Notes: generated by a model not told the origin, from the sequence alone. A DNA stretch of 64,000 nt from Longimicrobiales bacterium (GCA_965238005.1 OZ250165.1:4416001-4480000), one strand, 5' to 3'; positions 36,795 to 58,161 are shown, numbered from the stretch's first letter. Translations and numbers: made by a program.

Positions 36795-36867
<73 letters not shown>

Positions 36868-37186: not shown

Positions 37187-37224
37187 CTGTTGTCCCGCGA
37201 CCGCAGAGGCGATCGGTGCATCAG

Positions 37225-37297: not shown

Positions 37298-37300
37298 GAC

Positions 37301-37336: not shown

Positions 37337-37362
37337 TGACGAAGGGTGCGCGCTCGAAGTTT

Positions 37363-37455: not shown

Positions 37456-37524
37456 CGACCGACTCCCTGAAAGCTGAATGGCCAGCACGTGGAAACGCCG
37501 CCCGAAGGCGGCGTTGTCAGCAAG

Positions 37525-37598
<74 letters not shown>

Positions 37599-39172: not shown

Positions 39173-39246
39173 CGGGACGTGGCGCAGCTCGGTAGCGCAC
39201 CTGAATGGGGTTCAGGGGGTCGCCGGTTCGAATCCGGCCGTCCCGA
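39173..39246 (+). tRNA. tRNA-Pro(GGG), probable integration site
   Basis: CCTGA-AT-GGG-GT-TCAGG; integrase gene immediately downstream. Confidence 0.95.
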
Positions 39247-39261
39247 CTGTGGAGGTGATTG

Positions 39262-39295
39262 CCCCGCTTGATGTTACAGCATCAGGCGGGGTTTT
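39262..39295 (+). terminator. Terminator after tRNA-Pro(GGG)
   Basis: CCCCGCTTGATG-ttacag-CATCAGGCGGGG-TTTT. Confidence 0.7.
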
Positions 39296-40509
39296 GCGTT
39301 TGTCCCAAAAGTGGGACTTGTGCCTTTTCGTGTGCCTTTTCGTGCGCCATTCTGGCACTCTTTCCGGCGTTCCAACGCCCCTCGGAGTTTGTCTTCGTCG
39401 GGTCGTTGGTAGCACTTGATGACGGTCTCGATGTCCCGCCAGCCACCCAACTGGCACACCACACTGAGGGGCTCCTCATGGAGATCGGTGGCGAACTTCC
39501 TCCGGAGCGAGTGCCATCCCCGCCCTGGTTTCCGCTCGAGCCCGGCCCTCACCTCCGCCCGCCTCCACCAGTTCCTGAGCAGATAGCGCCCCACGGGCCT
39601 CGCAGGGTCCTTGGGCGCCGGGAGCACCGGGGAGTCACCGATGCCAGGGCCATGCACTCGAGCCTCCTCAAACGCGACCCTGGCGTCCTCCGTCATCGGT
39701 GTGACGTGGGCATAGCCCGTCTTCTCAGACTCAGCACGCCAGTGGATGCTCGCCCCTTCGAAGTCGAGGTCGGACCACCGGAGCACCCGGATGGCGCCGA
39801 TCCTGTGGCCTGTTTCGTGCGCCAGGATCAGCGCAACACGGAACCTCCAGTCGACCTCACCCGCGACGCCGAGCAAGACCGAATACTCATGAGCAGTCAG
39901 GGTAATACGCCTCGGGTTCTTCTCTTTCGGCAGGCGGTACCCCTTGAGGGGGTCCCGCTCAAGCAGCACTCCACCGTGGCCGTCCCCTGCCATGGTTGCC
40001 CACGTGAGCACCGACCTCAGGTAACTCAGATCCTTCTGGACGGTGCGGGTGGCCACCGGCTCCCACTGCCCGGGCCGTGGTCCAATACGACCCGATCCAC
40101 GGTCCCGGATGAATCCATCCCAGTCCCTCCTGTTCAGCGTCGTTGCTCGACGATCCGGACCGAAGTACCGGACAAACATGTCCGCCGCCTTGCGGTCGTA
40201 TTGCTGATGACGCTCCCCGTTTCTCGGGGTCACCTCACCTAGGTATATGTCAAACAGCTCTTGGAGCGTGAGCTCCGGCGGAGCCTCCTCGATCACGGAC
40301 TCCGCTCTTGCGAGCTTGGCCGCAACCTCGTCAGCCTTACGCTTCGCCTTCTCGCGGTCGGAGTGACCCAGGGCGATGCGCTTCCGCTCACCGTCGTCCC
40401 GGAACTCGAGGGTCAGTGATCCTCCCGGCCGCTCGAAGATCCGAACACGGTTCCTGCCCTTCTCGCCGGACAGGTAGCTCCATCCCTTCCTTGTGCGTCT
40501 GGCCATCAT
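39274..40509 (-). CDS. Tyrosine integrase
   Basis: TGHRIG (R), EKTG (K), HSLRR, GGWR, CY catalytic set. Confidence 0.93.
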   Translation of the reverse strand: MMARRTRKGWSYLSGEKGRNRVRIFERPGGSLTLEFRDDGERKRIALGHSDREKAKRKADEVAAKLARAESVIEEAPPELTLQELFDIYLGEVTPRNGERHQQYDRKAADMFVRYFGPDRRATTLNRRDWDGFIRDRGSGRIGPRPGQWEPVATRTVQKDLSYLRSVLTWATMAGDGHGGVLLERDPLKGYRLPKEKNPRRITLTAHEYSVLLGVAGEVDWRFRVALILAHETGHRIGAIRVLRWSDLDFEGASIHWRAESEKTGYAHVTPMTEDARVAFEEARVHGPGIGDSPVLPAPKDPARPVGRYLLRNWWRRAEVRAGLERKPGRGWHSLRRKFATDLHEEPLSVVCQLGGWRDIETVIKCYQRPDEDKLRGALERRKECQNGARKGTRKGTSPTFGTNAKPRLML

Positions 40510-40886
40510 TGGTCTCCTGCTCTGATGGCAGATTGCACGACCTCCGTCCGTGAAATCTGGAGGTTCTGGGGGTGCCGTACCACCCCTGCCCTGACCGGCA
40601 GGTCTCCTCGGGCGATCCGGGGAGCTCCAGGCCTACCAGCGTTCGCGATCCTTCCCTCTCGGACGAGGCGCCCGAGGTGGTCTGTAGAGTACCCGCTGAG
40701 GTCGGAGGCCTCGGTGAGGGTCAGGGGGGCGTCGGCTCCCTCGCGGAGGGCTTTCTCGAGGGCGTCAGCGCATTTCTCGTAGGCGAGGGCCACGGAGGTC
40801 TCCTCGTGCTCTCGAAAGAGCCTACTCCTATCGCGCCACTCCTCAGGGAGGTCAGCGGGGAGCACGGGGCCGTTGGCGGACTTCAC
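40506..40886 (-). CDS. Excisionase-like MerR/HTH_17 DNA-binding protein
   Basis: LTLTEASDLSGYSTDHLGRLVREGRI..GAPRI; overlaps the int start. Confidence 0.7.
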   Translation of the reverse strand: MKSANGPVLPADLPEEWRDRSRLFREHEETSVALAYEKCADALEKALREGADAPLTLTEASDLSGYSTDHLGRLVREGRIANAGRPGAPRIARGDLPVRAGVVRHPQNLQISRTEVVQSAIRAGDQ

Positions 40887-43294
40887 GACCCCACCTCCTC
40901 GTCCTCCGTCGCCGACTCATCCACTAGATCAAAGAGGTCGGCGACGTTCTCGACGCGACCGCCGTGTCCGGCCCGCCACCCGGGAATAGCGTAGTACCTG
41001 TGCCGGTTCCCAGTGCGCCTGTTCTCGATGGCTCCACGGTGGATCAAATCACGAACAGCTTCCTGTTTGGCACCGTTACGACCCTCGACACGGTCGCGGA
41101 TGTGTTGCGCAGCACAGCCCGGCTCGCTCTCAATGAACTGGAACACACGTGCGAGAAGGGAGAGCTCTCTTGGGACGTCCACGAGCTCGACCACGGCGCT
41201 CGCAAAGAGAGTTGGTTCACTGTCGTCTGTGGTCGTCAGCGACAGACCCGTAAGCCCCTTCAGACGGAAGCCGAGCGGCAGAGGTTTGTGGCCGCCGTCC
41301 CGCATCTTCCGTGTCTTGAGGGTCATGGGGTTGCCGCTATCGAGAGCTTCCCTCGTGCCTTTGATCACATAGGAGAAGTCCAGGCCCTGTTCCCAGGCCG
41401 AAGCCCCCCGTAGGCGGTCGCTGTCGCCGTATCCCACGTGGTGCGTGAAAAGAGACGTGCAGTCAGTTTCGGCTGCAAACCGTGAGAGTAAGCCAGTGAT
41501 GGCGTTGGCAGTGTCGTTGTCATTCTCCGACTGCTCTGCCCCTAACGTTTTTCCGAGCGTGTCGATGATGACGAGGCCAGCGCCGGTCTGATTGATTGTG
41601 TTGATCAATCCGGTTTCAAAAACCGGGTCGTCGAACCGAGGCGGGTACTCGCTGATTATGACACGGCCCCGAAGCACCTCCTCCATCTCGGCGAGCGTAG
41701 CACTCTCGCGTAGGTACCCGTGTTCAACCAACCAGCCGAAAATCCGCTTTGGGAAGTCGCGATTTCCCTCGGCGATTAGAAAAATGACGGGCTGCTGCGT
41801 CGTCTCGGACCCGAGCCAGGGCCGCCCGAAGGCGACCGAGCATCCCAGGTCGATCACCAGCCAGGTCTTCCCAAGAGAGAAATCTGAGACGATGGCGCCA
41901 ACGCCAGCAGCGGGGATGCGCCCGTCGACGAGGTACCGATCTTCCAATCGGATGTCCTTTATATTTAGGGCTCGGAGAACGGGCACCCCGTCAGCATCGC
42001 GCACGAAGGCGGCCCGCCCATTGGATGGCTTGACCGAGTTCAGTACATCCTGCGCCCCCTGCCTGCCCAGAAGGTTGTCCAACTTGCGGGTCAAGGCGGC
42101 TTCGGCGAGCGTGCGCTCCCGATGATCCAACGTGGGGAGCATCGCCAGCACCCGGTCACTCGTGTCCAGTGCTGTCGCCAGTGAGTTCGGACCGAGCTGC
42201 CCAATCAGCTTAAGCGCGGTGGACAGGGCGTCAGAGCAGCATGCAGGGCCCTCCGTAGCCTCTGGAGCGTCCTGGTCAGCCTCAAACAGCCCTTGAATCT
42301 CCTCCACCCTCTCTTGGGAGAGTTCCTCCTTGAGGGTGTCCTCCCCAACCTTGAAGCCCTGCCCCCGTAGCCACTTCCACCCGATCTCGAATGGGGGTTT
42401 GAGACTATCCCATGTCCTCTCCACGAGATCAGGATCGTTCTCGCCCCCCTTCCAGCGGCCGGAAAAGTCCTGAAACATCTCAAGCCCTGCGATCACGTCG
42501 TCCTGGGCCGCCGCCCGGATCGCGATTCCAAACCTGATCCACTCGTCGCGGGTCTCGTACGTGTTCGGGATCCGGGCAATGAGCTCCTCGAGCTCCTTGA
42601 TCGAGGGGGCCTTGAGGTCCTCCTGCGGAGGCGCCTCCTTCACTCTCCCGTCCCCCACGATCTCGACGTCGAAGCCCTCGTCGCGAAGAAGGGTCGCGAG
42701 GTGCTCGAAGAAAGCCTGAGCGCTCACCCTGCTCACCCACGGGAGGGTCTCCGGGTCTACCTCCCAGAGCGGGGCGCCCTCCCATCCATAGTCGACCCCG
42801 GAGGGGTGACGGCCGTGGATGAGGTACTGGCGGCCCTTGCCGAGCCACTCGATCTCTGCCGATTCGTCTCCCTTCCGGACCTTGAGGACCATCTTGGGGA
42901 AGGGCTCCTTCGTCCGATAGACGAGGAGGCCGCGAGGGTGGCGCGAGGTCCGGTAGGGCGACGGCCCGAAGGAGGACTCGGCCTCCTTGCGGACCAACTG
43001 CGTCAGCTTCTCGAAGTCAGAGTCGATGTCCAGAGCTGGGAAGCGGTTACCGAGGAGACCAATGTTCGCCCTCCACTCGTCGATGGTGGCGGGGTCGATG
43101 CTCTCCTTCGTGAAATTGTAGCCCCGCCACCCGTGGGGTCCCATCTCACCAGGACATTTCCCGCGCTGGCCGGGGTCTATCTTAGAGTACGGTGAAAGGT
43201 CACCGTCCGGTGGGATGACGGAAACGAGCTCTGTGTAGCCTCTGTTGTAGAGTTTGGTCGCGACGTCGTTGTCGCGGCGTGTGTTGTGAGACAT
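40883..43294 (-). CDS. Prim-Pol + PriCT-2 + AAA_25 (RecA-like) primase-helicase with C-terminal wHTH
   Basis: NIGLL..ALDID, HPSG..Y.W; RDEWIRFGIAI; LGKT, IIDTL, END, HHVG, RLRGASA. Confidence 0.85.
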   Translation of the reverse strand: MSHNTRRDNDVATKLYNRGYTELVSVIPPDGDLSPYSKIDPGQRGKCPGEMGPHGWRGYNFTKESIDPATIDEWRANIGLLGNRFPALDIDSDFEKLTQLVRKEAESSFGPSPYRTSRHPRGLLVYRTKEPFPKMVLKVRKGDESAEIEWLGKGRQYLIHGRHPSGVDYGWEGAPLWEVDPETLPWVSRVSAQAFFEHLATLLRDEGFDVEIVGDGRVKEAPPQEDLKAPSIKELEELIARIPNTYETRDEWIRFGIAIRAAAQDDVIAGLEMFQDFSGRWKGGENDPDLVERTWDSLKPPFEIGWKWLRGQGFKVGEDTLKEELSQERVEEIQGLFEADQDAPEATEGPACCSDALSTALKLIGQLGPNSLATALDTSDRVLAMLPTLDHRERTLAEAALTRKLDNLLGRQGAQDVLNSVKPSNGRAAFVRDADGVPVLRALNIKDIRLEDRYLVDGRIPAAGVGAIVSDFSLGKTWLVIDLGCSVAFGRPWLGSETTQQPVIFLIAEGNRDFPKRIFGWLVEHGYLRESATLAEMEEVLRGRVIISEYPPRFDDPVFETGLINTINQTGAGLVIIDTLGKTLGAEQSENDNDTANAITGLLSRFAAETDCTSLFTHHVGYGDSDRLRGASAWEQGLDFSYVIKGTREALDSGNPMTLKTRKMRDGGHKPLPLGFRLKGLTGLSLTTTDDSEPTLFASAVVELVDVPRELSLLARVFQFIESEPGCAAQHIRDRVEGRNGAKQEAVRDLIHRGAIENRRTGNRHRYYAIPGWRAGHGGRVENVADLFDLVDESATEDEEVGS

Positions 43295-44933: not shown

Positions 44934-46411
44934 CACTGATAGGTAACGCTTTTCTCACCCCTGATGGGTGACAGTCTCGACCCGTAACGTGGCGCTCCTT
45001 CGACACGCTCTTGGAGCTGCCCATGCCATGGTTGGAGACCGATCCCATGAACGAACGCAAGCGATTCATCCTCGAGGCCACCGCGAGCCTCTTCTCCCAC
45101 TCCGAACTCTGCCGACGCTACAACATCAGCCGCAAGACGGGCTACAAGTGGCTCGAACGATACGAGACCCAAGGACCCGACGGGCTGCTCGACCGCTCCC
45201 ATCGGCCCCATTGCTGTCCCCACGCTACTGAGCCCCACATCCTCGAGGCTGCCTTCGAGCTCCGCCGTCGTCGACCCCGGTGGGGAGCTGCCAAGATCCT
45301 AGGCCGCCTCCTCGAGGTGCACCCCGACTGGTCGCTACCCGCGCCCCAGGTCCTGCACAGACACTTCCTGCGCGAGGGCCTGGTCAACAAGCTGCGGCGC
45401 CGACGTAAATCCTCTCATCCCGGTCGACCCACCGCGCCCTTCGATGCGCCCAACTCCATCTGGTCCGCCGACTTCAAGGGGCAGTTCAAGACCCTCGACG
45501 GCGTCTACTGCTACCCGCTCACCGTCCAGGATGGCTTCAGCCGCTACCTGCTCGCTTGTCAGGGCCTCTCAGGGACCACCTACGCCGGTTCCAGACGTGT
45601 TTTCACCCGCCTCTTCCACGAGTTCGGGATCCCCGACCGCATCCGTACCGACAACGGTACTCCCTTTGCCTCCATAGCCTTAGGGCGCCTCTCCAGGCTC
45701 TCCGTCTGGTGGATCAAGCTCGGCATCCTGCCCGATCTCATCGAGCCCGCATCTCCCCAGCAGAACGGCCGCCACGAACGCATGCACAAAGACCTCAAGG
45801 CTGAGGCCACCATCCCGCCCGCCGGAAACCGATCCGCTCAGCAGAAACGCTTCAATGCCTTCCGCATTGATTTCAACGAGATCCGGCCCCACGAGGCCCA
45901 CGGCCAGAGGCCGCCCGCCTCCGTCTACGAGCCCTCAACCCGTCCCTTCCCCAGCAAGCTCTTGACCCCCGACTACCCCGCCCACTTCGAGACCCGTAAG
46001 GTCTCCATCAACGGCGGCATCCGATGGCACTCCGCCTGGGCCAACGTCTCTCATCTGCTCGGCGGCGAATACATTGGCCTCGAGGAGGTCGCCGACGATG
46101 TCTGGGCTGTCTACTTCGGTCCCGTCGCCCTCGGTTGGCTTCACGTCCGAAAAGCTGCCATCCTCGATCACGATGGCTCCTCGTCCCGTAATCCACGACG
46201 CTGAGGCCGCGTGAACTGCCCAGCCCCTCAGACGTCGACGCGAACCGCTACCTTCGTGGAACTCCGCTCGCTTCTACTCCCCTGCGCTCCGGCGCAGCGG
46301 AAGCTTCTGACTCCACCGGTGGAGGTAACAAAAAAAACAGCAGCTTACCTGACAAGAACTGTCACCCATCAGGGGTGTGTAACTGTTGGTACCCATCAGG
46401 GGTACCGCTCA
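44934..46411 (+). mobile_element. IS481-like insertion sequence 2 (ends approximate)
   Basis: Perfect 18-bp IR CCCCTGATGGGTGACAGT (44958-44975) / 46358-46375, plus outer imperfect copies. Confidence 0.85.
45023..46204 (+). CDS. IS481-family transposase
   Basis: ISRKTGYKW..RY, WSADFKG, TDNGTPF, PQQNGRHER. Confidence 0.92.
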   Translation: MPWLETDPMNERKRFILEATASLFSHSELCRRYNISRKTGYKWLERYETQGPDGLLDRSHRPHCCPHATEPHILEAAFELRRRRPRWGAAKILGRLLEVHPDWSLPAPQVLHRHFLREGLVNKLRRRRKSSHPGRPTAPFDAPNSIWSADFKGQFKTLDGVYCYPLTVQDGFSRYLLACQGLSGTTYAGSRRVFTRLFHEFGIPDRIRTDNGTPFASIALGRLSRLSVWWIKLGILPDLIEPASPQQNGRHERMHKDLKAEATIPPAGNRSAQQKRFNAFRIDFNEIRPHEAHGQRPPASVYEPSTRPFPSKLLTPDYPAHFETRKVSINGGIRWHSAWANVSHLLGGEYIGLEEVADDVWAVYFGPVALGWLHVRKAAILDHDGSSSRNPRR

Positions 46412-47657
46412 CTGGGAGTACCGGGCGGTCGTATCGAACCCTACACCTATGACGGACGTCCATATGTCCGCCATGGTCCGACGACGCTGCAAATGCCTCA
46501 GGAGGAGTATCGGCGGCGACTGATTGAGCAAATGCACCCCACGCAGCGATGGGAGATCCAGCCCGCTCACGAATTGTCCATGGAAGACCTCGATACGTCT
46601 GAGATCGTCAGAACGGTTGAAGAGGCGATCCGTCGAGGCCGTTTGGATGAGCCCGCCACGAGGGACCCTGGGCATCTACTCCGTGGGTTGGGACTCCTCC
46701 GAGATGACCGAATCCTAAATGCAGCGGTCGCGCTATTTGGTCTTGAGAGCTCGTTTCTCCCTCACTATCCCCAGTGCCTTCTAAGGATGGCCCGATTTCG
46801 AGGGGTTACCACGCACGACTTCGAAGATAATCGACAAGTCCATGGTAACGTCTTCGACCTGCTTCTGCGCGCCCAGCGCTTTCTTCGGGAGCACCTGCCC
46901 GTCGCTGGACGGATCGTCCCGGACCTCTTTCAGCGGCAAGACGATCCGCTCTACCCTCCAGAGGCTCTTCGGGAGGCACTCGCCAATGCGTTTTGCCACA
47001 AATCCTACGGGATAGGAGGTGGCTCGGTGAGTATCGCGATCTTCGATGACCGACTCGAAGTCTCAAGTACGGGTCGCCTACCATTTGGTCTCACGGTAGA
47101 CGACCTCACTCGACCCCATCCATCCCGACCGTGGAATCCACTCATGGCGGGGGTCCTGTACCGAAGGGGCCTTATCGAGCAATGGGGTAGGGGAACGCTC
47201 CGTATCGCGGAGCTAATCGAACAGGCTGGATTAGCCGAACCAGAGTTTGAGGAGCGAGGTGGGGAGGTCGTGGTCCGCTTCTTTCCGACCGGATATGTGC
47301 CGCCTCGGCGGGTCGATCATCCGTTGACGGACCTTCAGCAGCAGCTCCTTCGGGCTCTTGCGGAGATCGGCCCAGCTCTGTTGAATGAAATCCTCACCCT
47401 ACTCCCCGCAGGTGTTGCTTCCAGGACCGTGCAGTACAACCTAGGGACGTTACGCGAGCTAGATCTAGTTGAGCTGCAGGGCTGGGGCCGAGGAGCTCGT
47501 TGGCGCCTAACGGGCAGGTGACTGGTTGCGCCTTTTTGTTCCTTTTGCGCCTTTATAGTGCTGACCGTTTGATCGGCGACGAAACTCGGTTGGAATAGCC
47601 AGGGCCTTAGAACCAGGGCCGTTCCGGGTCACTTAGGCAAAAGGGCAGCGAGACTCC

Positions 47658-47728
47658 GTTCGGGCTCATTCGGGTCCATTCGGGTCCATTCGGGCTCATT
47701 CGGTCCATTCGGGTCCATTCGGGTCCAT
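47658..47728. repeat. 7 x ~10-bp tandem repeat ATTCGGG(TC/CT)C, iteron-like
   Basis: Read directly; one unit is 9 bp. Confidence 0.9.
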
Positions 47729-47768
47729 CTACCTTCTTCGACAGTCGTAGCGCGCGCGTAGCACACCG

Positions 47769-48089
47769 CCCCCCCCTTGGGGCCCCTCCCCCCGGGGGCG
47801 AGGCAGACAAATCTCGACAGCACTTTGGCCGTGACAGTCCTCGCGCACGCGTGAGACACGCGCCGAGATCGGCAGTCGATAACTACACGGCCGAGCTGCA
47901 TACTCGAGCGCAATCTCTCCCGTAGCGACGAGCTCATGAATATCCGCTGATCTGTAAATGACTGTCCTGCACTCACTTACGGCACAGTACAGGCTGCGTA
48001 TAATAGGGATTATGTAAAGCATCTGACCCCGGCACCCGGCGCTGCCGTGCACCCCCCCTTTGGGGCCCCTCCCCCCGGGGGCGAGGCAG
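47769..48089. repeat. ~38-bp GC-rich direct repeat pair upstream of terS
   Basis: CCCCCCCTT(T)GGGGCCCCTCCCCCCGGGGGCGAGGCAG at 47769-47806 and 48052-48089. Confidence 0.9.
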
Positions 48090-48238
48090 TCGCCTACCCC
48101 TCACAGCGCGACGCGGGGAGTCCCGCCAAAAAAAATGGGGGATCTGGCCATTTTCTCCGATCCGCCCCCCTCCGGGCATTTCTCGACCCAGAAAAACCCT
48201 TTCCCTGGGGAATCCATTAGTTGGGTCATACAACTACT

Positions 48239-48703
48239 ATGTCAGGACGACCGTTTCTACAAATGATCTCAAAGAAGATCGAATCCCTCGGCGGGGACGA
48301 GTGGTTTTTTGGGCGGATCATCAACGGGGACACGATGGCGGCCATCGCGGAGACCGTGGAGTGCTCCCGTCCGTTTCTGTACCAGTGGCTCGACCTCAAG
48401 CGGGAGGAGCGCCGGGCGGCGCTCCCTGCAGCTAGACGGCTGTCGGCGGACGCCCACGTCGAGGGCGGGCAGGAGCTCCTGGACCGCCTGGCGGGCACCG
48501 ACGCGACCTCGTCCGAGGTCTCCCTGACCATCGCCCGGGCCAGGTACAGGCAGTGGCGGGCCTCGCGGTACAATCGGGAGCTGTATGGGGAGCCCCGGCC
48601 CGGGCTGGATGTGAGTATCTCGATAGGGCAGCTCCACCTGGACGCACTTCGGGCGAAGGGGGCCATGGAGGTCCCGGAGGCGGAGGTCAAGCTTGTCGAG
48701 TAA
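48239..48703 (+). CDS. Terminase small subunit (Sf6/P22-like)
   Basis: HTH (RI.NG.T...IA...SR..LY.WL), AR...AD, RQWRASRYNRELYGE signature. Confidence 0.75.
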   Translation: MSGRPFLQMISKKIESLGGDEWFFGRIINGDTMAAIAETVECSRPFLYQWLDLKREERRAALPAARRLSADAHVEGGQELLDRLAGTDATSSEVSLTIARARYRQWRASRYNRELYGEPRPGLDVSISIGQLHLDALRAKGAMEVPEAEVKLVE

Positions 48704-50257: not shown

Positions 50258-52180
50258 ATGGTTTTCGATCATGGTGTCCTGCCCATGAAGACGGCAGGAA
50301 CACATCACTTCATCGACCGGACGTATCGCGAGAGCGGGCAATTCCAGTGGGTGCGAGAGACCTTCACCAACGCCATCGAGGCCGACGCGACGCGCGTAGA
50401 GTTCGGCATCGAATGGCAGGCAGTGGAGAGCCTCGGTGTTTACCGGCGTGTGATCGCCGATAACGGTCAGGGGATGACCGCCGACGAACTCGTCGAGTTC
50501 TTCAACACGTTCGGTGGAGGCGGGAAGCCGATCGGTGGGGTCCACGAGAATTTCGGTGTCGGCGCGAAGACGTCCCTACTTCCATGGAACAAGTATGGTC
50601 TCGTCGTCATCTCTTGGGTCGACGGTGACCCCGCGATGATCTGGGTTCGCCATGACCCCAAGTCAGAAGAGTACGGCCTCCAGGTTTTCGAGGCGTTCGA
50701 CCCGGACACGGACGACATGAGTCTGGAAGAGGTGGTCTTCCCCTTCGACGACCCTGATCACGGGTGTGACTGGGAGTTGGTCAAGCCGGACTGGATTCAG
50801 GAGCACGGCACCGTTGTGGTGCTGCTCGGCGACGATCCCACGGCCCATACCGTTCTGGGTGATCCAAACCGGGAGGAGGCTGACATCAAAGGCATCTCCC
50901 GCTACCTGAATCGTCGGATCTGGACCGTCCCGGACGACGTGGACGTGCTTGTGGATGAGCTTCGCACCAACGATCGGGCGAATTGGCCCCGATCTGAGGA
51001 GGAGGCTCACGGAGCTCCGCCAGACAAGGGGTACGACAGGCGGTCGAACCTGCGGCGTATCGAGGGGGCCGAGTACTTCATCGAGTATCCAGCCAAAGGC
51101 TTCAAGAAGGGTGCGCTGGAGGCTTCGGGGGTCGTCGGGCTGGAGGACGGTACCGACGTGGCGTGGTATCTCTGGAGCGGAGATCGTCCCGCCGTTCAGT
51201 CGTATGCTGCCATCGGCGGGTACATAGGCGCTCTCTACCAAAACGAGCTCTACGATATCACCGCCCATGCAGCCACCTACCGGTCTTTTGGTGTCAGCGA
51301 GGGCGATGTTCGTCGGCGGCTCTGGCTGATTGTTATGCCGGCGCGGCTAGATGACGATCGGACCCAGGGCGTGTACCCCAGGACCGACCGAAACTCGCTG
51401 CTGTTGAAGGGTGGCCCGAGCGCCGGGGAGCCCCTCCCCATCAACGACTGGGGGAACGAGTTCTCCGACCTCCTGCCAGAGCCCATCCTGGCGGCTATCC
51501 GATCGGCTCGTGGAGGAGCGCACGGTTCGATCACGGACCCGACGTGGCGAGATCGTCTGGCAGAGCGGTTTGGGAAGCTGTGGCGGATTCCAAAGCTCAG
51601 GCGGAAGAAGGGTGGCCCAGTATCGATGGATCCCGACCAAGAGGGGACCGATCCGCGACCGGTTAGAAAGCCCTCTCGCAGGCGCGGAATGAAGGGGTCG
51701 GGAGGAGGTGGTGGCACCAAGGGAGCCTCGAACACAGGCAGCGCCGGTTCCAAAGAGGAGGGACGGAAGTCCAAGGTCTCCGGCGGCATTCCGGAGTTCC
51801 TCTGGCGACCCGCGACCGACTTCGAGTCGCTCGGATATCTCGGTGCCTGGCAACCGAATGACCCTGATTACCCCCAGGGCGTCGTACTCCTGAACGTCGA
51901 GCATCCAGTGATAGAAGGCGAGATCGAACGCTGGCAGTCGATGTATGCTGACCATCACGCAGACGGTGTCCGGGAGGAGGTACTCCGGGCCTACGGGGAG
52001 ATCGCGGTCTCGAAAGTGGCCCACTCCGAGTTTCTCAAGGCCCACCTCGCCTCTGGGAAGGTCGATGAAGAACTTCGATCGCCAGGAGCGCTAACGATGG
52101 CGCTTCTTGGGCTCCTGGCTGAGGAGGCCGTCATCTCAACCCGAGTGGGTGGAAAGTTCGGCCGCAGGCGAACCGCCTGA
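50258..52180 (+). CDS. GHKL (MORC/MutL/Hsp90-like) ATPase
   Basis: RETFTNAIEA, DNGQGM, NFGVGAK, GTVVVL motifs. Confidence 0.85.
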   Translation: MVFDHGVLPMKTAGTHHFIDRTYRESGQFQWVRETFTNAIEADATRVEFGIEWQAVESLGVYRRVIADNGQGMTADELVEFFNTFGGGGKPIGGVHENFGVGAKTSLLPWNKYGLVVISWVDGDPAMIWVRHDPKSEEYGLQVFEAFDPDTDDMSLEEVVFPFDDPDHGCDWELVKPDWIQEHGTVVVLLGDDPTAHTVLGDPNREEADIKGISRYLNRRIWTVPDDVDVLVDELRTNDRANWPRSEEEAHGAPPDKGYDRRSNLRRIEGAEYFIEYPAKGFKKGALEASGVVGLEDGTDVAWYLWSGDRPAVQSYAAIGGYIGALYQNELYDITAHAATYRSFGVSEGDVRRRLWLIVMPARLDDDRTQGVYPRTDRNSLLLKGGPSAGEPLPINDWGNEFSDLLPEPILAAIRSARGGAHGSITDPTWRDRLAERFGKLWRIPKLRRKKGGPVSMDPDQEGTDPRPVRKPSRRRGMKGSGGGGGTKGASNTGSAGSKEEGRKSKVSGGIPEFLWRPATDFESLGYLGAWQPNDPDYPQGVVLLNVEHPVIEGEIERWQSMYADHHADGVREEVLRAYGEIAVSKVAHSEFLKAHLASGKVDEELRSPGALTMALLGLLAEEAVISTRVGGKFGRRRTA

Positions 52181-52261
52181 GGCCGTGACCAACACTCACA
52201 AGCTCGGCATCACGGTACCGCCGGGGGGTCCCCCGGTGGTGCCTGTCGGGAAGGAGATGAC

Positions 52262-53161
52262 ATGAAGAATGCGTTCTACAGGGCTCGTCGTCGCGGTTCA
52301 GTTATCCTCGGCCCTGACGGACTCCCCGTGCGCAGGAACCGGCGCTACGCTGCAGACAAGCTTTCGTTCTTTGATCGGTGGCTACCTCCCGCACTGAAGA
52401 TTACCAGAAAGAAGATCCACAGACACTACGTGGACTTCTTCGCCGGCTACGGAGCGTACCAGGATGAGAACGAGGAATTCTGCCAGGGATCACCCATAAA
52501 GGCCCTTACCCTCTCTCCGGACGAAGCTGGATTCACCCACGCAACGTTCGTGAATCTGGACGAGGAGGCTCACTACACGCTGCAGGAGCGGGTACGGCAA
52601 GTAGTCGACGCGGGGAAGACGGGTGTCCCTTGGTCCAACGTCCGCTTCATCCTCGGAGACGCCAACGAGGTCGTTGAGGACGTGCTCTCCGAGATCCACC
52701 CACGGGCCTTCGTCTTTGCGTTTATCGACCCGGAACAGGTGCGACAGTGGCACTGGTCCACGGTGCAGAAGCTGGGTGGCGGCCGCCATGAGAGTGTGGA
52801 CATCTATATGCTGCTTCCACTGGAAATGGGGATTTTCCGAGAGATGGGATATGACCTAGAAGCCTGGCCCGCCGACGATCTGGACACGTTCGTAGGCTCA
52901 CGCGAGTGGGAGAATCTGAAGCGACTCCGGACTTCGCAGCGCAGGAGTCGTGAGATGCGGGCAGCGTTTGAGAAGTTGTACGTACGACGACTCCGGCAGC
53001 ATTGGTCCTATGCGGGGAGGCAACGGAAGGTCTACCTCAGGGGTAACCAGGCGCTATATCGGATGATATTCGCGACCAACAATGAGCATGCGTGGGACCT
53101 GGCGGAGTGGGAAGTCTCAGGCCCCCGCCCTCGCGACCCTCAACTCAGCCTCGACCTGTAA
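52262..53161 (+). CDS. tcmP: Three-Cys-motif partner protein TcmP (SAM-MTase-like fold)
   Basis: DKL.FF, YVDFFAG.G, GSPI.AL, GDAN, FAFIDP, Y.MIFAT. Confidence 0.8.
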   Translation: MKNAFYRARRRGSVILGPDGLPVRRNRRYAADKLSFFDRWLPPALKITRKKIHRHYVDFFAGYGAYQDENEEFCQGSPIKALTLSPDEAGFTHATFVNLDEEAHYTLQERVRQVVDAGKTGVPWSNVRFILGDANEVVEDVLSEIHPRAFVFAFIDPEQVRQWHWSTVQKLGGGRHESVDIYMLLPLEMGIFREMGYDLEAWPADDLDTFVGSREWENLKRLRTSQRRSREMRAAFEKLYVRRLRQHWSYAGRQRKVYLRGNQALYRMIFATNNEHAWDLAEWEVSGPRPRDPQLSLDL

Positions 53162-53923
53162 TCGGTTTGTCGACGGATACTGATCCCACGTCACACCGTC
53201 GAGTAGGCGGCCGTGTGCCTTCGGCGTGCGGCCGCCTACTTGCTTGAAGAAGAAGGGCACGCCGGCCGCAAGGGATTGATCGCGGACGCCACGAGCCCAA
53301 TCCAGGTCCATCGGCCGGTGGTGGGGCCCGCTCTCCCCTCCCGCGATCACCCAGTGCACTCCTTCGAGCTCCAGAAGGAGTGGGCCGAGGAGCGGCTCGC
53401 AGGAGAGGAATCGGACCGCTGCTGGTACCTGACGTAGCTGGCTTACACGGTAGTAAACCTTCTGCCCCTCGACGGAGGTACCGATCCAGATGTGGGCCGG
53501 TATGGCCTCGCCGCCGAAGAGGTCCACATTTCGCCTGTAGAATCGATGAGCTCGCGACGGACGCTTGGTAAGGACCTGATATACATGCCGATCCTCGTCG
53601 AGCATGACTCTAAAGATCCGGCGGATATACTCGTTGGGGATGTCGTTGTGGAAGAGGTCGCTCATCGAATTGACGAAGACCATCCGCGACGCGGACCAGC
53701 TTCGGGGCTGGCCCAACCGTTCGGGCCAGAGCCGGACAGCGAAAGGGTCTCTCCGATTCTCAGCGGTATCGACAACGGGAAGGCGACGAGTGTAGGTCTT
53801 CCTCAGCCGGCGTCCTGCAAGCTCGGCGGCATAACAGTGGTCGCACCCAGTCGACACCTTCGTGCAGCCAGTGGTCGGATTCCACGTAGCGTCCGTCCAC
53901 TCGATGCCGGTTTTCTCACCCAA
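53117..53923 (-). CDS. DUF5131 / phage Gp37Gp68 three-Cys (radical-SAM-like) protein
   Basis: IEWTDATWNP.TGCTKVS.GCDHCYA, NSMSDLFH, LTKR, SCEPLLG, GGESG, FFFKQ. Confidence 0.93.
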   Translation of the reverse strand: MGEKTGIEWTDATWNPTTGCTKVSTGCDHCYAAELAGRRLRKTYTRRLPVVDTAENRRDPFAVRLWPERLGQPRSWSASRMVFVNSMSDLFHNDIPNEYIRRIFRVMLDEDRHVYQVLTKRPSRAHRFYRRNVDLFGGEAIPAHIWIGTSVEGQKVYYRVSQLRQVPAAVRFLSCEPLLGPLLLELEGVHWVIAGGESGPHHRPMDLDWARGVRDQSLAAGVPFFFKQVGGRTPKAHGRLLDGVTWDQYPSTNRLQVEAELRVARAGA

Positions 53924-55013: not shown

Positions 55014-55270
55014 CTACCGGCCCCGCTTGATGATCGCCTCTTGGATTTCGATGTACGTACCCGCCGCATCGATGAACCGCTGGTAGTCGATCGACGGCGT
55101 CCGGTCGGCGTAGCCCTTGGATCGTCGGAAGAGCGTCAGCGCCTGCTGGAACATGGGCAGTGACCGGTTGGCCGTCTCCAGCGTCTCCTGTGATCCGACC
55201 GCCATCCCCTGGTTGAAGAGGCTGTAAGCGTGCCAGAAGTCGAACTGCTCACGGGTCTGAGCCGTGACTG
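55014..55270 (-). pseudogene. C-terminal fragment of a helical (TPR-like) protein
   Basis: Protein-like QTREQFDFWHAYSL...IEIQEAIIKRGR* without a credible start. Confidence 0.4.
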
Positions 55271-55339: not shown

Positions 55340-57883
55340 TCAGCGCCCCTCCCACTCCGCCCGAAGCCGCGCGATCACCTCGCGGGTCTCGGCGATGCGG
55401 TCCTCAAGCCCCGCTCGGTATCTCCAGGCCAGCTGATTGAGCGTCTCGTTCGGCTGCACGATCACGGCCGCGAGTTCATCGAGGTACCGGACGTTCAGCG
55501 CCAGGTAGTCGAGCGCGGTGTCGGGGTTGTGGAAGCTCGAGCCGTCCGTGGTCACGTACACGGGCGTCGTGTGCGCCACCTGGCCCTCGGCCCCCCGGGC
55601 GCGGGCCGCGACCCAGACGCCGTGGTCCAGCTCGAGGTCGAACTCGACCGTGAGCGCCGCCGGCGATTGACCTGGCTGGTCGGGGCTCGCGGACGCGATC
55701 ACCTCGCCGTGGACGACGATTTCGAGCGCGGAGAGCGGCACCTGTACCGCATGGCCGAGTGCCTCCGCGGTGACGCTTAGCGTCGATCCCGCGCTCAGGT
55801 CGAGCTGGTCCCCGGGAATCGCTCCGTTGACCCGCAGATCGATCACGGGGCCGTTGCTCACGAAGGTGTGGCCCGCGTGCAGGCTCTCCCGCCATGCCTC
55901 GAAGGACAGCCCGTCCTCAAGGTAGGTGTAGAAGCGGGCGTCACCGATCTCCCCGCCGAAGGGAAAGTCGGATCCGGCCATCGCCGTGAGCTTGTAGCCG
56001 AGATCGAGGAAGTGGTAGTAGTGATCGAGCACCATCTCCCCGAACTGCAGGATCTCGATGAAATCGACCTTCTCCCTCAGGACGTCCAGCGTCAGCCCGC
56101 GGTAGCCGAAAAACCCCACCCCCTTGTGTGCGTAACCGGTCAGGCCACCGAGCTCGTGGACAGTGTCGAAGACACGGTCGTAGTAGTAGTACTGCCCCGC
56201 GAAGCGCACGAAGTCGTCCGCCGCCAGGGAGATGGTGTTCCCGATCTCGTGGGTCCTCGGCTCTTCCTGACCCGAGGAGAGCATGTAATCCTCCACCCGG
56301 TATGCGCCGTCCTCGCCCCATGCGTATTGGGCGAAGTAGGTGGCCCAGAAGTCGCCCATCTGGAGGAGCGCGCCGACGTGGATGTCCTCGGCTGCGATCC
56401 ACTTCAGGATCAGCGGGTCCTCTCGGGGCGATCGCCTCAGATGGATGTGATCGTCCGTCGAGAACCACCCCCGCTCCGGCATGTCGACCCAGCGCTCGAG
56501 CCGGACCGTCTCCGACCGGTCCACCCCCGGCGCGAGTTCCAGCTCCAGCTCCTGCACCAGGTACTCGTAACCCTTGGAAACTTCGAGGTGATAGGTGCCG
56601 GGCTGCAGCTCCAGTTCGAAGCTGCCATCGATGTAGAAAAACCTGCCGTATGGGGCGTCGAACCCGCGGGCGACGTCGTTCGGGCCGTGCATGATCCCGA
56701 TCGCGGCTTGAGGGATCGGCGCGACGGCACCGCTTGCATCTGTGAGCCGTGCTCGGACTGGAGTGGGGTTCCCGCTCGCCGCGTCGACGATTGTGGCCGA
56801 GAGTCTGACGGAGGTATACAGGGTCGGGTTCCTCCAGAGCGCGACCGTCCCCTCGCGATCCGACTCGGCCTCCAGTGTCAGGACGACCGATTCGCCGGCG
56901 AAGGCGGCCAGGTCGACCGACCGCGCCGCCCACTCCGCACGGTCCGCCCACACCTCATCGAACAGTCGCTCGGTGCGGCCATCCTCGGAAGTTATCAAGA
57001 CGCCGAAGGTCACCGGCGCATCGTCGCGCAAGACGCCGAGGGCCAGATCCAACCGTCCCTCGTCCGGCACCTCGACGTTGAAGTCGATGCGACCGGGAGC
57101 GCGAATGTAGAGGGCGGGCGGCTCCCGCACGTCGACGGACCGTACGCCTACCGCCGCGTCCGAAAAGGGGGCTTCCTTCGAGACAATCCGGATCGACAAG
57201 ATGTCGATACTGACGGGCTCGGTGGAGCCGATCCAGAGACCCAGCTCGCGCCACACTCCATCCCAGCCCTGCTGTCCGGGGGGGAAATCCGCACGCAGTA
57301 GGTACGCGTGGACCTCGCCGTCTTCAATCACTGCAGTGCTGGGGGAATTGAACTCGAACGGGTACGGCTGTTCCCGGACCGTGCCCGACCCCTCGCGTAG
57401 GTTGAACGCGGTACCGATGTATTGGACCGGATCGGAGGTCCGGGCGCGCACCTCGATGAAACCCCAGTCCCACATTTGGAGATCGGGAACCTCCACAACG
57501 AGCCCCCCGCGCGGGAAGCCACCCAGATTCCGAGTGCCCTCGGTGAGCGTGACGCGAAGGGCGTCCGTGGTATGGGTGACGGTCGCCGACTCGATCTCAG
57601 GGTTCCAGGGGACCACCGCACCCCAGTCCGGCTGAGGCCGATCGAAGATCCACTCGATCAGGCTCGGAACATCGGTGGGCATCGCCGAGCCACTCACTGT
57701 CGCCTCAGCTAGCATCTGGTCGAGGTGCGCCGGGTTAGGAAAGTCCGAGCCCGGACCGGCTGGCCCGCAACTGACCAGGGTTGCCGCAGTGACGAGAACA
57801 GCGAGAGCGGAACGGGTGAGCCGGGCGAGCGAGCGGGTTGGCGCCGGTCGCGGGAGACGGGAGGACGGAGCGTGGTGTCGCAT
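55340..57883 (-). CDS. CehA/McbA-family (PHP-like) metallohydrolase lipoprotein
   Basis: Lipobox LVSC; KGYEY, GWFSTDDHIH, GYAH, AGSD, TFVSNGP. Confidence 0.75.
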   Translation of the reverse strand: MRHHAPSSRLPRPAPTRSLARLTRSALAVLVTAATLVSCGPAGPGSDFPNPAHLDQMLAEATVSGSAMPTDVPSLIEWIFDRPQPDWGAVVPWNPEIESATVTHTTDALRVTLTEGTRNLGGFPRGGLVVEVPDLQMWDWGFIEVRARTSDPVQYIGTAFNLREGSGTVREQPYPFEFNSPSTAVIEDGEVHAYLLRADFPPGQQGWDGVWRELGLWIGSTEPVSIDILSIRIVSKEAPFSDAAVGVRSVDVREPPALYIRAPGRIDFNVEVPDEGRLDLALGVLRDDAPVTFGVLITSEDGRTERLFDEVWADRAEWAARSVDLAAFAGESVVLTLEAESDREGTVALWRNPTLYTSVRLSATIVDAASGNPTPVRARLTDASGAVAPIPQAAIGIMHGPNDVARGFDAPYGRFFYIDGSFELELQPGTYHLEVSKGYEYLVQELELELAPGVDRSETVRLERWVDMPERGWFSTDDHIHLRRSPREDPLILKWIAAEDIHVGALLQMGDFWATYFAQYAWGEDGAYRVEDYMLSSGQEEPRTHEIGNTISLAADDFVRFAGQYYYYDRVFDTVHELGGLTGYAHKGVGFFGYRGLTLDVLREKVDFIEILQFGEMVLDHYYHFLDLGYKLTAMAGSDFPFGGEIGDARFYTYLEDGLSFEAWRESLHAGHTFVSNGPVIDLRVNGAIPGDQLDLSAGSTLSVTAEALGHAVQVPLSALEIVVHGEVIASASPDQPGQSPAALTVEFDLELDHGVWVAARARGAEGQVAHTTPVYVTTDGSSFHNPDTALDYLALNVRYLDELAAVIVQPNETLNQLAWRYRAGLEDRIAETREVIARLRAEWEGR

Positions 57884-58161
57884 GAGCACTTCCCCCTGAT
57901 CATGCCTCGCTAGAGCAGTCGTGCCTTCCCCGTAACCTACCTCTCGTTCAGGTAGTCGTGCACGAACCGGATCGAAAGTGAGCCGTGGCCATCCCGCCCT
58001 CACCAAACTCGCGCTCGCTGGAGTAGCGGCCTTCTAGGGCAGCGTTCAGACGGGTGATAGGGTCGGACATGGGCACCTCACAGCCACATGAGCCTTCGGA
58101 TCATCATGGGCGACCCCTCTCAGACATTGTGCGTCCACTTCATTATCAAGCGTCTCCCCGA

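Follow-up and report, generated by a model that had tools for sequence, protein, structure and literature searches.

The question raised by this locus was whether three adjacent genes, encoding a GHKL-type ATPase, TcmP, and a DUF5131 protein, constitute a single three-component system of phage defense or DNA modification, as was proposed in an earlier note on the sequence, or whether they are separate cargo. The window, that is, the whole stretch of DNA analyzed, comprises 64,000 nucleotides from a Longimicrobiales bacterium (GCA_965238005.1 OZ250165.1:4416001-4480000), and positions are counted from its first letter.

Layout of the locus and its host element

The ATPase gene (50258..52180, plus strand) is an ORF of 640 aa, which public databases start at M10 to give 631 aa. 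It is followed on the same strand by tcmP (52262..53161; three-Cys-motif partner protein, short form, 299 aa). The DUF5131 gene, also labeled phage Gp37/Gp68 (53117..53923, minus strand; 268 aa, TTG start), is convergent with tcmP, and in the ORF listing the two genes have positions 53117-53161 in common, an overlap of 45 bp that joins two nonconserved C-terminal tails. The three ORFs, including the CX6CX2C motif of DUF5131, were thus as the earlier note had described them.

Between the stop codon of the ATPase gene and the start of tcmP lies a spacer of 81 bp, in which a GC-rich hairpin was recognized from sequence and folding (52203..52250, plus strand). Downstream of it lies GGAAGGAG, a ribosome-binding-site-like sequence ahead of tcmP. 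The region 52176-52265 folded at -41.5 kcal/mol (z = -1.81), with 10 of 200 shuffles folding equally well, and a terminator scan made no call at the hairpin. The hairpin may be a transcript boundary, although it is suggestive only; with the two genes 81 bp apart and the hairpin just marginally better than shuffles, co-transcription of the ATPase gene and tcmP is possible. If all three genes formed one defense or modification system, the MORC-like ATPase would be its sensor or motor. The adjacency of the genes, the co-orientation and close spacing of the first two, and the location of all three among the accessory genes of an element with an integrase are consistent with such a system, whereas the hairpin and the separate ribosome-binding-site-like sequence ahead of tcmP argue against it.

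The element itself was outlined as follows. A tRNA-Pro(ggg) gene found by ARAGORN (39173-39247, plus strand) is abutted by a tyrosine integrase gene (39274-40509, minus strand; Phage_integrase, 1.8e-16; phrog_1, 1.9e-47), and the region 39173..40509 is probably the left junction of the integrated element bearing the three genes. A primase-helicase gene with PriCT_2 and AAA_25 domains in Pfam lies at 40883..43294 (minus strand; phrog_906, 2.2e-26), and an ORF weakly resembling Sf6-type small terminases lies at 48221..48703 in the same orientation as the ATPase gene (plus strand; Sf6_terminase, 2.7e-6, 27.9 bits against a GA of 27; phrog_1482, 4.3e-6). From ~55.3 kb, GC3 climbs to host-like values. 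The right end of the element was not marked by a repeat of the tRNA 3' end, and the lone candidate att repeat was a 13-bp match between 39261-39273 and 55020-55032, for which ~0.05 occurrences are expected by chance on a rough estimate. That the three genes stand at the distal end of such an element, as the earlier note had it, is plausible; the integrase at the tRNA and the primase-helicase are present, and no tRNA-derived repeat was found. An array of 17 tRNA genes was also observed 2 kb from the element; its position is beyond the integrase junction, and it may belong to the chromosome.

Assignment and neighborhoods of the ATPase

Three regions were predicted in the ATPase: residues 1 to ~420 hold a GHKL domain plus a transducer-like middle domain, residues 420-509 a disordered linker rich in Lys, Arg, and Gly, and residues 510-640 a helical C-terminal domain. 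Its GHKL identity was weak by Pfam, where HATPase_c_3 scored 24.2 bits, marginally below the gathering score of 25, but was supported by the predicted fold; in addition, some homologs bear a precomputed PF13589 label. The AlphaFold2 model (pLDDT 71.7) was matched in Foldseek by GyrB/ParE 43-kDa ATPase fragments and Hsp90 (E of ~3e-9, TM on target of ~0.5), and the alignments to GyrB/ParE extended over 446-492 columns with a TM on target of up to 0.51. The residues found invariant among 24 homologs were E34, N38, D68, G70, G72, G100, G102, K104, G184, and T185, and we take E34/N38, D68/G70/G72, G100/G102/K104, and G184/T185 to be motifs I-IV of the Bergerat fold. With these motifs conserved and a GHKL-plus-transducer architecture in the model, the protein was assigned as a putative GHKL ATPase of the MORC type. 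Searches of Pfam, NCBIfam, PADLOC, and PHROGs returned neither a nuclease nor any other effector domain for it, which bears out the earlier statement that it has no recognizable nuclease domain.

MORC/MutL-type ATPases of restriction loci were reportedly treated by Iyer, Abhiman, and Aravind in 2008. GHKL ATPases also occur in known defense proteins, a precedent that favors the three-gene system: Tiamat (10.64898/2026.09.30.754977) and the GHKL-Shedu protein VcSduA (PMC12137116) are each a GHKL protein with a C-terminal PD-(D/E)xK nuclease. The window ATPase resembles Tiamat, VcSduA, and the MORC/MutL-type ATPases in its N-terminal GHKL domain, motifs I-IV, and clamp-like middle domain; unlike the nuclease-bearing Tiamat and VcSduA, it carries no detected effector domain and has no PADLOC match. 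Assignment as Tiamat or GHKL-Shedu was rejected, as no PADLOC model matched at E<=0.01 and no library returned a nuclease domain. It also resembles single-protein GHKL defense factors in being a single gene that often lies near mobile-element or defense-type genes; a mobile-element, toxin-antitoxin, or defense-type domain was found nearby in 16 of 25 loci, a raw share without background control.

Evidence on a three-gene system came from the neighborhoods of ATPase homologs, in which the earlier note had looked to co-occurrence with tcmP and DUF5131. The family is rare and strongly conserved, at about 60% identity across phyla. Fifty homologous loci from at least eight phyla were compared with flanks of up to 10 kb, 37 of them with 2 kb or more of downstream sequence. 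When all 25 proteins of the window served as tblastn queries, TcmP was found in 0/50 loci and DUF5131 in 0/50, and each other element protein had matches in 0 or 1 of the 50. Profile HMMs built from 69 TcmP and 30 DUF5131 sequences, which gave positive-control values of 1.8e-104 and 2.7e-151, likewise yielded 0 matches at E<=10 among the 3,957 ORFs of these loci. In all-versus-all clustering, only the ATPase (47 loci) and its alternative-frame ORFs were widespread; the best real neighbor cluster covered five loci, and no conserved neighbor was found among the 50. No match to the ATPase was found among 50,697 phage records, and 72,556 plasmids gave six weak matches, none with >=80% query coverage. 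Conversely, the ATPase was present in none of the 10 DUF5131 loci sampled (see below), and PADLOC has two-component models for the pair and none that matched the ATPase. ATPase homologs that rarely adjoin tcmP or DUF5131, the observation that the earlier note had named as refuting its claim, are thus what was found. The three-component claim did not survive these comparisons: a three-gene system is close to refuted by co-occurrence, and we regard it as very unlikely. The relatives whose context was compared are at most 67% identical to the window ATPase, and the ATPase may therefore have joined the TcmP-DUF5131 pair recently, in this lineage alone.

The ATPase is accordingly described here, from its sequence and model, as an apparently uncharacterized solo gene of MORC-like type, its ATP motifs intact and no effector domain found. 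It could act alone, as a dimeric clamp driven by ATP in the manner of MORC/MutL proteins, its basic disordered linker may bind DNA, and it could be a single-gene defense factor or a factor for maintenance of the element.

Assignment of TcmP and DUF5131

TcmP matched NCBIfam TIGR04474 (1.1e-32, 114 bits, cutoff 53), and its neighbor is a PF07505 gene; no match was found in Pfam. A profile search of PDB sequences gave nothing significant (best E=0.97). The AlphaFold2 model (pLDDT 92.3) gave 328 PDB matches at E<=1e-3 in Foldseek with methyltransferases at the top, and among these matches the closest solved folds were RlmJ, Trm1, YhhF, and TYW4, with DUF519 also matched. Against RlmJ/Trm1/RsmD-type enzymes, E was 7e-6 to 2e-5, TM was 0.41-0.55, and identity was 10-16%. 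These nearest structural relatives methylate exocyclic amines of rRNA or tRNA bases, i.e., RNA and not DNA. Among 69 homologs, G64, D156, R193, and W216 were invariant and D58, F60, and G62 nearly so; the D-x-F-x-G-x-G SAM-binding motif and a D-P motif are kept. TcmP is thus predicted to have a class I SAM-methyltransferase fold with a glycine-rich motif I, closest to RlmJ/Trm1. The canonical motif IV of amino-methyltransferases is (D/N/S)PP(Y/F/W), which TcmP does not match. While the fold is common to TcmP and the RlmJ/Trm1/RsmD-type enzymes, TcmP has D156-P157-E158 at this position, with D156 alone invariant and the aromatic residue absent, and TcmP may in fact not be a transferase. One long-form TcmP has a C-terminal winged-helix domain (PF22560, 1.9e-7).

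DUF5131 matched PF07505 with E=8.7e-90 (300.9 bits, gathering threshold 28.9) and phrog_2045 with 4.6e-90. The three cysteines of its C20-x6-C27-x2-C30 motif were invariant in 30 homologs, as were C175 and G195-G196-E197-S198-G199. In radical SAM proteins, a GGE-type motif has the role of SAM motif. DUF5131 is like this superfamily in its three cysteines and GGE-type motif; it differs in that CX6CX2C stands in place of the canonical CX3CX2C, and no match to Pfam Radical_SAM PF04055 was found at E<=0.01. The radical SAM protein of TIGR04471 ("mobile pair" protein A) was distantly similar (1.2e-10 over residues 19-228), but membership of DUF5131 in that family was ruled out by a score of 41 bits against a cutoff of 355. 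The RadicalSAM.org/SFLD table, as given in PMC9477430, includes DUF5131 among its radical SAM subgroups (Megacluster-5-2). From the three-cysteine site, the GGE-type motif, and this curated inclusion, DUF5131 was assigned as a probable radical-SAM-superfamily member. The methyltransferase-like and radical-SAM-like characters that the earlier note had ascribed to the pair were upheld by the Foldseek matches of TcmP and the radical SAM listing of DUF5131.

By sequence comparison, DUF5131 is the slowly evolving partner and TcmP the fast-evolving one: the best 120 DUF5131 matches were 64-74% identical, and TcmP matches, of which there were 606 at E<=1e-3, were 25-44% identical.

The pair in other loci and its possible functions

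Ten loci with DUF5131 (three phage, seven plasmid), hand-picked from ranked lists and not random, were inspected. TcmP adjoined DUF5131 in six, in agreement with the claim that the two are recurrent partners. Five of these six pairs were convergent, and three of the five had overlaps of 4, 29, and 4 bp. In 4/10 loci, including phage replication-gene clusters, DUF5131 occurred without TcmP, from which it follows that TcmP is not obligatory for DUF5131. In Gordonia phage Easley the pair has the integrase on one side and the immunity repressor on the other, and on a Burkholderia plasmid DUF5131 lies downstream of a C5 DNA methyltransferase.

In PADLOC, the two adjacent genes matched both component models of one candidate system, tcmP being PDC-M41A (3e-18, 52262-53161) and DUF5131 being PDC-M41B (4.6e-88, 53117-53923); PDC-M30B was also matched (1.1e-84). 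The PADLOC comparison foreseen earlier was therefore positive for the pair, which stands as candidate defense or modification cargo, and negative for the ATPase at E<=0.01. PDC-M41 is one of 145 PADLOC "phage defense candidates," which are candidates only and were compiled from genes found inside BREX, DISARM, and type I RM systems; the TcmP-DUF5131 pair is absent from the main-text discussion of that preprint (Payne et al., bioRxiv 10.1101/2024.01.29.577857). The PDC-M41/PDC-M30 models were also matched by the pairs of Gordonia phage Easley, a Streptomyces plasmid, and a Pseudomonas plasmid. The short window TcmP (299 aa) is PDC-M41-like, whereas the sampled phage and plasmid TcmPs (370-438 aa) are PDC-M30-like. 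Relative to the known TcmP/PF07505 pair (TIGR04474 and DUF5131, the latter formerly phage Gp37/Gp68), the window pair is distinguished solely by its 45-bp convergent overlap. A literature search found no functional study of the ATPase, TcmP, or DUF5131.

The convergent layout invites comparison with restriction-modification (RM), as convergent genes with separate promoters are common in type II RM systems. TcmP would then methylate and protect self DNA, and DUF5131 would damage unmodified incoming DNA by radical chemistry. The methyltransferase fold and intact SAM motif of TcmP fit this, as do the immunity-region position in phage Easley and the embedding of PDC candidates in RM, BREX, and DISARM loci (10.1101/2024.01.29.577857). 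No nuclease motif was found in DUF5131 with Pfam, PADLOC, or NCBIfam, however, and in the 4/10 sampled loci without TcmP an unguarded restriction activity would be hazardous. Furthermore, typical RM systems show the opposite pattern of evolutionary rates to this pair, in which the catalytic partner is slow and the methyltransferase-like partner fast. An RM-like function was considered unlikely.

Modification of tRNA or rRNA, e.g., protecting or retuning translation in phage-host conflict, was judged quite unlikely. It is suggested by the rRNA/tRNA methyltransferases among the closest solved folds of TcmP (RlmJ, Trm1, YhhF, and TYW4) and by the tRNA array 2 kb from the element, and radical SAM enzymes and methyltransferases together build tRNA hypermodifications such as wybutosine. 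These fold matches reach just TM ~0.5 at 10-16% identity, however, and the array lies beyond the integrase junction and may be chromosomal. The winged-helix domain of one long-form TcmP and the plasmid on which DUF5131 is paired with a C5 DNA methyltransferase also argue against RNA.

DUF5131 was found in 177 of 50,697 phage records, frequently amid genes of DNA metabolism, and could be a lyase that repairs DNA, similar to spore photoproduct lyase, and serves upkeep of the element genome, with TcmP as an accessory and no defense role. This would leave unexplained why a fast-evolving partner with a methyltransferase fold recurs beside it, why the pair occupies an immunity-region position in phage Easley, and the embedding in RM, BREX, and DISARM loci (10.1101/2024.01.29.577857), and megacluster proximity is a coarse measure. 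A repair lyase was deemed highly improbable.

Proposed interpretation

Since 0/50 ATPase loci carried TcmP or DUF5131, it was concluded that a catalogued two-gene candidate pair probably stands beside an independent orphan ATPase. The locus is best read as two units: the convergent TcmP-DUF5131 pair (52262-53923), a PDC-M41-type module, and the ATPase gene (50258-52180). That these are independent cargo of one integrase-bearing element, lying side by side and not forming one three-gene system, with the pair as a SAM-dependent modification module, is the interpretation we moderately favor. The pair is already catalogued as a PADLOC candidate, and its grouping with the ATPase appears not to recur.

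In the proposed mechanism, TcmP would bind SAM and a nucleic acid target and set the site or substrate specificity, and DUF5131, with a [4Fe-4S] cluster and SAM, would act by radical chemistry on the base or nucleotide presented to it. The outcome would be a covalent nucleic acid modification, with DNA as the favored target, that the carrier element or prophage could use in conflict with phages or host restriction. The convergent, tail-overlapping layout would give each gene its own promoter. The pair may thus be a SAM-dependent nucleic acid modification module in conflicts between mobile elements and hosts.

More tentatively, and with some doubt on our part, TcmP-DUF5131 could represent a new epigenetic or defense chemistry in which a rapidly diversifying TcmP steers a highly conserved DUF5131 to specific DNA sites, and phages, plasmids, and satellites employ the resulting radical-derived base modification for marking or shielding DNA; separately, the ATPase would be an effector-less single-gene immune or maintenance clamp spread across at least eight phyla. 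If this is true, the short-TcmP PDC-M41 form in the window would be a minimal version of the DNA-marking chemistry.

Three ORFs and their domain assignments

The locus comprises three ORFs, namely, the ATPase gene (50258 to 52180, plus strand, 640 aa), tcmP (52262 to 53161, plus strand, 299 aa), and the DUF5131 gene (53117 to 53923, minus strand, 268 aa with a TTG start), the last two being convergent with 45 bp in common. The 268-aa protein was identified as a full-length DUF5131 (PF07505, 8.7e-90) with the cysteine motif C20-x6-C27-x2-C30. The 299-aa protein scored above the NCBIfam cutoff for TcmP (TIGR04474, 114 bits versus 53) and was without a Pfam match, while the 640-aa ATPase fell just below the gathering score of HATPase_c_3 (24.2 bits versus 25). 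The ORF layout, the CX6CX2C motif, and the 45-bp tcmP/DUF5131 overlap claimed in an earlier note on this DNA were all found as placed.

The ATPase gene and tcmP are separated by a GC-rich hairpin (52203 to 52250; −41.5 kcal/mol, z = −1.81, equaled by 10 of 200 shuffles), and the ribosome-binding-site-like GGAAGGAG is situated 3' of this hairpin, ahead of tcmP. These two features are compatible with separate expression of the ATPase and tcmP, short of proof. No Rfam match was obtained at gathering thresholds between 47 and 56 kb of the window.

Genomic neighborhoods of the ATPase family

The earlier note had proposed that the ATPase, TcmP, and DUF5131 form one three-component defense or base modification system. 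The major data bearing on this proposal were the neighborhoods of ATPase homologues. The family gave at least 461 matches at E ≤ 1e-3 among 8,000 candidates scored, and the best 120 relatives of those listed were 57 to 67% identical along their entire length (100% for the window protein itself); the closest homologues of both the ATPase and TcmP are known from metagenomic proteins only. With each species represented by a single genome, scanning yielded 50 ATPase loci, retrieved with as much as 10 kb of flanking sequence, from Actinomycetota, Planctomycetota, Chloroflexota, Myxococcota, Acidobacteriota, Pseudomonadota, Bacteroidota, and Verrucomicrobiota. At least 2 kb of downstream sequence, enough to reveal a pair placed as in the window, was present in 37 of the 50, the other 13 being shorter.

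When all 25 proteins of the putative integrated element carrying the three genes were compared to these loci by tblastn, the ATPase was found in 50/50 and each other protein in none or one, with TcmP and DUF5131 both at 0/50. Since TcmP diverges quickly, the test was redone with profile HMMs built from 69 TcmP and 30 DUF5131 sequences. Neither gave a match at E ≤ 10 in the 50 loci (3,957 ORFs, each 70 aa or longer), and the window proteins used as controls were recovered at 1.8e-104 (TcmP) and 2.7e-151 (DUF5131). The reverse comparison, of the ATPase profile with 10 sampled phage and plasmid DUF5131 loci, gave 0/10. The rarity of tcmP/DUF5131 beside ATPase homologues, named in the earlier note as evidence against its own proposal, is therefore what was observed, and on these sequence comparisons the membership of the ATPase in a three-gene system with the pair is not supported.

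Nor was any other partner apparent. In an all-versus-all clustering of ORFs, the ATPase (47 loci) and its other-frame ORFs alone were widespread, and the largest genuine neighbor cluster comprised five closely related loci; the family is about 60% identical across at least eight phyla and yet has no conserved neighbor. A Pfam scan of 218 heuristically called neighbor ORFs, within ±3.6 kb in the 25 of 50 loci with long flanks on both sides, showed heterogeneous contexts, some of them housekeeping (DnaE, lipoyl synthase, dUTPase, RecJ, and aconitase). A domain of the integrase, recombinase, transposase, terminase, relaxase, toxin-antitoxin, or defense type was present in 16 of the 25 (17 counting DUF222-HNH), a figure without a background control. 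At one locus (L032) genes for an EVE+MTaX1 protein and a DUF2357+PD-(D/E)xK protein come after the ATPase, and at another (L013) it is adjoined by a large terminase.

Among 50,697 phage records there was no member of the family, and the six weak matches in 72,556 plasmids all fell short of 80% coverage of the query. In a quick tree of 42 ATPase sequences (SH-aLRT supports), phyla were partly clustered with several cross-phylum neighbors, and the phylum label changed 13 times (at least 7 changes are required, and shuffled labels averaged 22.3). Misbinning of metagenome-assembled genomes may account in part for this pattern. About 100 nt upstream of the ATPase start was found to be noncoding and conserved within subgroups only, and the window does not have it; no terminal repeats of the single-gene transposon type were found flanking the ATPase genes.

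Structure and analogues of the ATPase

The AlphaFold2 model of the ATPase (pLDDT 71.7) aligned with the 43-kDa ATPase fragments of GyrB/ParE and with Hsp90 over 446 to 492 columns (E about 3e-9, TM on the target up to 0.51). Residues E34/N38, D68/G70/G72, G100/G102/K104, and G184/T185 were invariant across 24 aligned homologues and presumably represent GHKL motifs I to IV of the MutL/MORC type. The earlier statement that the protein has no recognizable nuclease domain is borne out, as neither a nuclease nor another effector domain was found in Pfam, NCBIfam, PADLOC, or PHROGs; no PADLOC model matched the ATPase at E ≤ 0.01. The ATPase profile had no match at E ≤ 1 among PDB sequences, and the viral structures retrieved by Foldseek were all generic GHKL proteins (topoisomerase II ATPase subunits, rIIA, and Hsp90). 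A protein atlas search with the whole ATPase placed it in unnamed HATPase_c_3 clusters of its own, one of which was 58% viral. Residues 420 to 509 are predicted to be disordered and are rich in Lys, Arg, and Gly, and residues 510 to 640 form a small strand-plus-helix domain in the model. This C-terminal domain was given no assignment because the atlas matches of residues 505 to 640 were inconsistent and low in features.

The description that best suits the ATPase is that of a rare and horizontally mobile family, encoded as a single gene, in which a MORC/MutL-like ATPase core is present without an effector. Its closest characterized analogues are the single-protein GHKL defense factors Tiamat (10.64898/2026.09.30.754977) and GHKL-Shedu VcSduA (PMC12137116), both of which have PD-(D/E)xK nucleases, whereas the window ATPase is without one. 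We infer that it would act as an ATP-gated dimeric DNA clamp, with a role in either defense or element maintenance.

The TcmP-DUF5131 pair as a catalogued candidate

Among PADLOC models, tcmP matched component A of a phage defense candidate (PDC-M41A, 3e-18), and DUF5131 matched PDC-M41B (4.6e-88) and PDC-M30B (1.1e-84). The long TcmPs (370 to 438 aa) of sampled pairs were better matched by PDC-M30A, and the window form was therefore deduced to be the short, PDC-M41 type. From profile matches, the pair stands as a catalogued candidate system of this type. According to their source (bioRxiv 10.1101/2024.01.29.577857), the PDCs are 145 single- and multigene candidates, drawn from genes located inside BREX, DISARM, and type I RM systems, and are explicitly untested; the main text of this preprint mentions neither TcmP nor Gp37. 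In other papers, TcmP is no more than an entry in tables of genes, listed beside the Hna defense gene of Sinorhizobium meliloti pSymA (PMC12445080) and in phiLM21-like prophages (PMC12429752). Full-text searches for DUF5131, PF07505, TIGR04474, PDC-M30, PDC-M41, and the partner phrase gave listings and no functional study, the slash form of the family name not being searchable.

DUF5131 itself is very common: no fewer than 8,000 protein clusters matched, and it was present in 177 of the 50,697 phage records and in 395 of the 72,556 plasmids. In 10 loci (3 phage and 7 plasmid) chosen from ranked lists rather than at random, the TcmP profile matched the gene adjoining DUF5131 in 6, which agrees with the claim that the two are recurrent partners. 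Five of the six pairs, all from Actinomycetota or their phage, were convergent (overlaps of 4, 29, and 4 bp; gaps of 180 and 92 bp), and the sixth, which adjoins an integrase on a Pseudomonas plasmid, was codirectional. In Gordonia phage Easley (L051), gp39 (3744 to 4859), deposited as a "methyltransferase," was found to be a long-form TcmP (TIGR04474, 5.5e-55) with a C-terminal GMT-like winged-helix domain, and together with gp38, the DUF5131 gene, it occupies the interval separating the integrase from the immunity repressor. This phage TcmP exists although tblastn with the window TcmP found no match in phages, and single-sequence searches were accordingly judged too insensitive for the family; a word-indexed search gave 4 TcmP homologues, and an exhaustive one gave 606 at E ≤ 1e-3.

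The remaining four loci had DUF5131 without TcmP. On a Burkholderia plantarii plasmid (L060, 2094 to 4969), DUF5131 lies in a conjugative transfer region, where it follows a C5 DNA methyltransferase gene and is translationally coupled to it by a 4-bp overlap. In a mycobacterial prophage (L052, 3001 to 5114), it is immediately next to a weak PAPS-reductase-like gene, in the company of genes for phage replication. These two proteins may be alternative partners of DUF5131. Of the other two loci, one is near a phage integrase and one is on a mycobacterial plasmid. The DUF5131 gene of prophiGD08-3 is recorded as an "RNA methyltransferase" and matches PF07505 at 1.5e-94.

Proposed roles of the two proteins

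DUF5131 was found to be slow evolving, its top 120 matches being 64 to 74% identical, with C20/C27/C30, C175, and G195-G196-E197-S198-G199 invariant. TcmP is fast evolving (25 to 44% identity among the exhaustive matches) and retains D58-x-F60-x-G62-x-G64, with D156, R193, and W216 invariant. The TcmP model (pLDDT 92.3) has a class I methyltransferase fold, and the nearest folds were RlmJ, Trm1, YhhF, and a DUF519 protein (TM 0.41 to 0.55, 10 to 16% identity). Against PDB sequences, the TcmP profile gave one match (E = 0.97) and the DUF5131 profile gave two chance-level Dps matches (E about 0.05). The C-terminal winged helix PF22560 was above threshold in one of six long-form TcmPs and at E ≤ 0.01 in two, the second being weak. 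Prediction of a DUF5131-TcmP complex with both alignments scored 0.00 without controls, a value given no weight either way on binding.

It is proposed that DUF5131 would be the catalytic radical-SAM partner and that TcmP would bind SAM and nucleic acid and set the target specificity, the two together placing a covalent modification on nucleic acid. Three features favor DNA as the target, namely, the winged-helix domain, the pairing with a C5 methyltransferase, and the embedding in RM and BREX loci. The pair would serve mobile elements in their conflicts with phages or with restriction systems. Counting against this proposal are motif IV of TcmP, in which D-P-E lacks the aromatic residue normally present, the RNA substrates of the nearest TcmP folds, and the occurrence of DUF5131 without TcmP.

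The putative integrated element

The probable left end of the element is marked by a tyrosine integrase gene (39274 to 40509, minus strand) abutting tRNA-Pro(ggg) (39173 to 39247, plus strand), with a PriCT_2/AAA_25 primase-helicase gene (40883 to 43294) downstream of the integrase. There follow an inserted IS481-family transposase gene (45011 to 46204), a HATPase_c_4/HTH protein gene (46211 to 47521), and a weak Sf6-type small-terminase-like ORF (48221 to 48703; 27.9 bits versus 27), and then the ATPase, tcmP, and DUF5131 genes. The stretch separating the HATPase_c_4 gene from the small-terminase-like ORF holds iteron-like tandem repeats, about eight copies of a 10-bp unit (47653 to 47738), and a 38-nt GC-rich direct repeat in two copies (47769 to 47806 and 48052 to 48089) that are 97% identical and 283 bp apart. 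This region (47653 to 48089) could be the replication origin or packaging site of the element. The remaining element ORFs had no PADLOC match at E ≤ 1e-5.

The GC3 of element ORFs is 0.72 to 0.79, and from 55.3 kb it is 0.82 to 0.85. The integrase, the primase-helicase, and this GC3 pattern fit an integrated, satellite-like element. A downstream search for the 3' end of tRNA-Pro with up to three mismatches found no copy, the sole match being another tRNA-Pro gene. A 10-mer scan gave one 13-bp exact direct repeat, GCCCCGCTTGATG, at 39261 to 39273, 14 nt past the tRNA-Pro end, and at 55020 to 55032, where GC3 turns host-like again. It is the sole candidate attL/attR pair and implies an element of 15.8 kb, and it is regarded as weak since about 0.05 such matches are expected by chance (a rough estimate). 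The earlier placement of the three genes at the distal end of an integrated element is plausible given the integrase at tRNA-Pro and the primase-helicase, this weak repeat being the candidate for the right boundary.

In the surroundings, 17 tRNA genes (Ser ×3, Pro, Gln, Thr, Ala ×2, Val, Arg, Leu ×2, Asp, Glu, Trp, Phe, and Met) occupy 2.3 kb (35264 to 37598, minus strand) some 1.6 kb to the left of where tRNA-Pro meets the integrase gene. A second IS481-family transposase gene (28714 to 29889) and a DDE_Tnp_1 transposase gene (26882 to 28204) were observed outside the element. An 888-aa ORF (55340 to 58006, minus strand) has a host-like GC3 of 0.82 and no Pfam, PHROGs, or PADLOC match.

Implications

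The locus holds a PDC-M41-type TcmP-DUF5131 pair beside a member of an uncharacterized solo ATPase family. The result argues against annotating the trio, a chance adjacency, as a single three-gene system and shifts the focus to two questions. One is the role of the solo ATPase, effector-less and MORC-like, conserved across phyla without a fixed genomic partner. The other is the role of the very widespread TcmP-DUF5131 pair, for which a slow radical-SAM-like enzyme set against a fast methyltransferase-fold partner offers a testable "catalyst plus specificity subunit" model.
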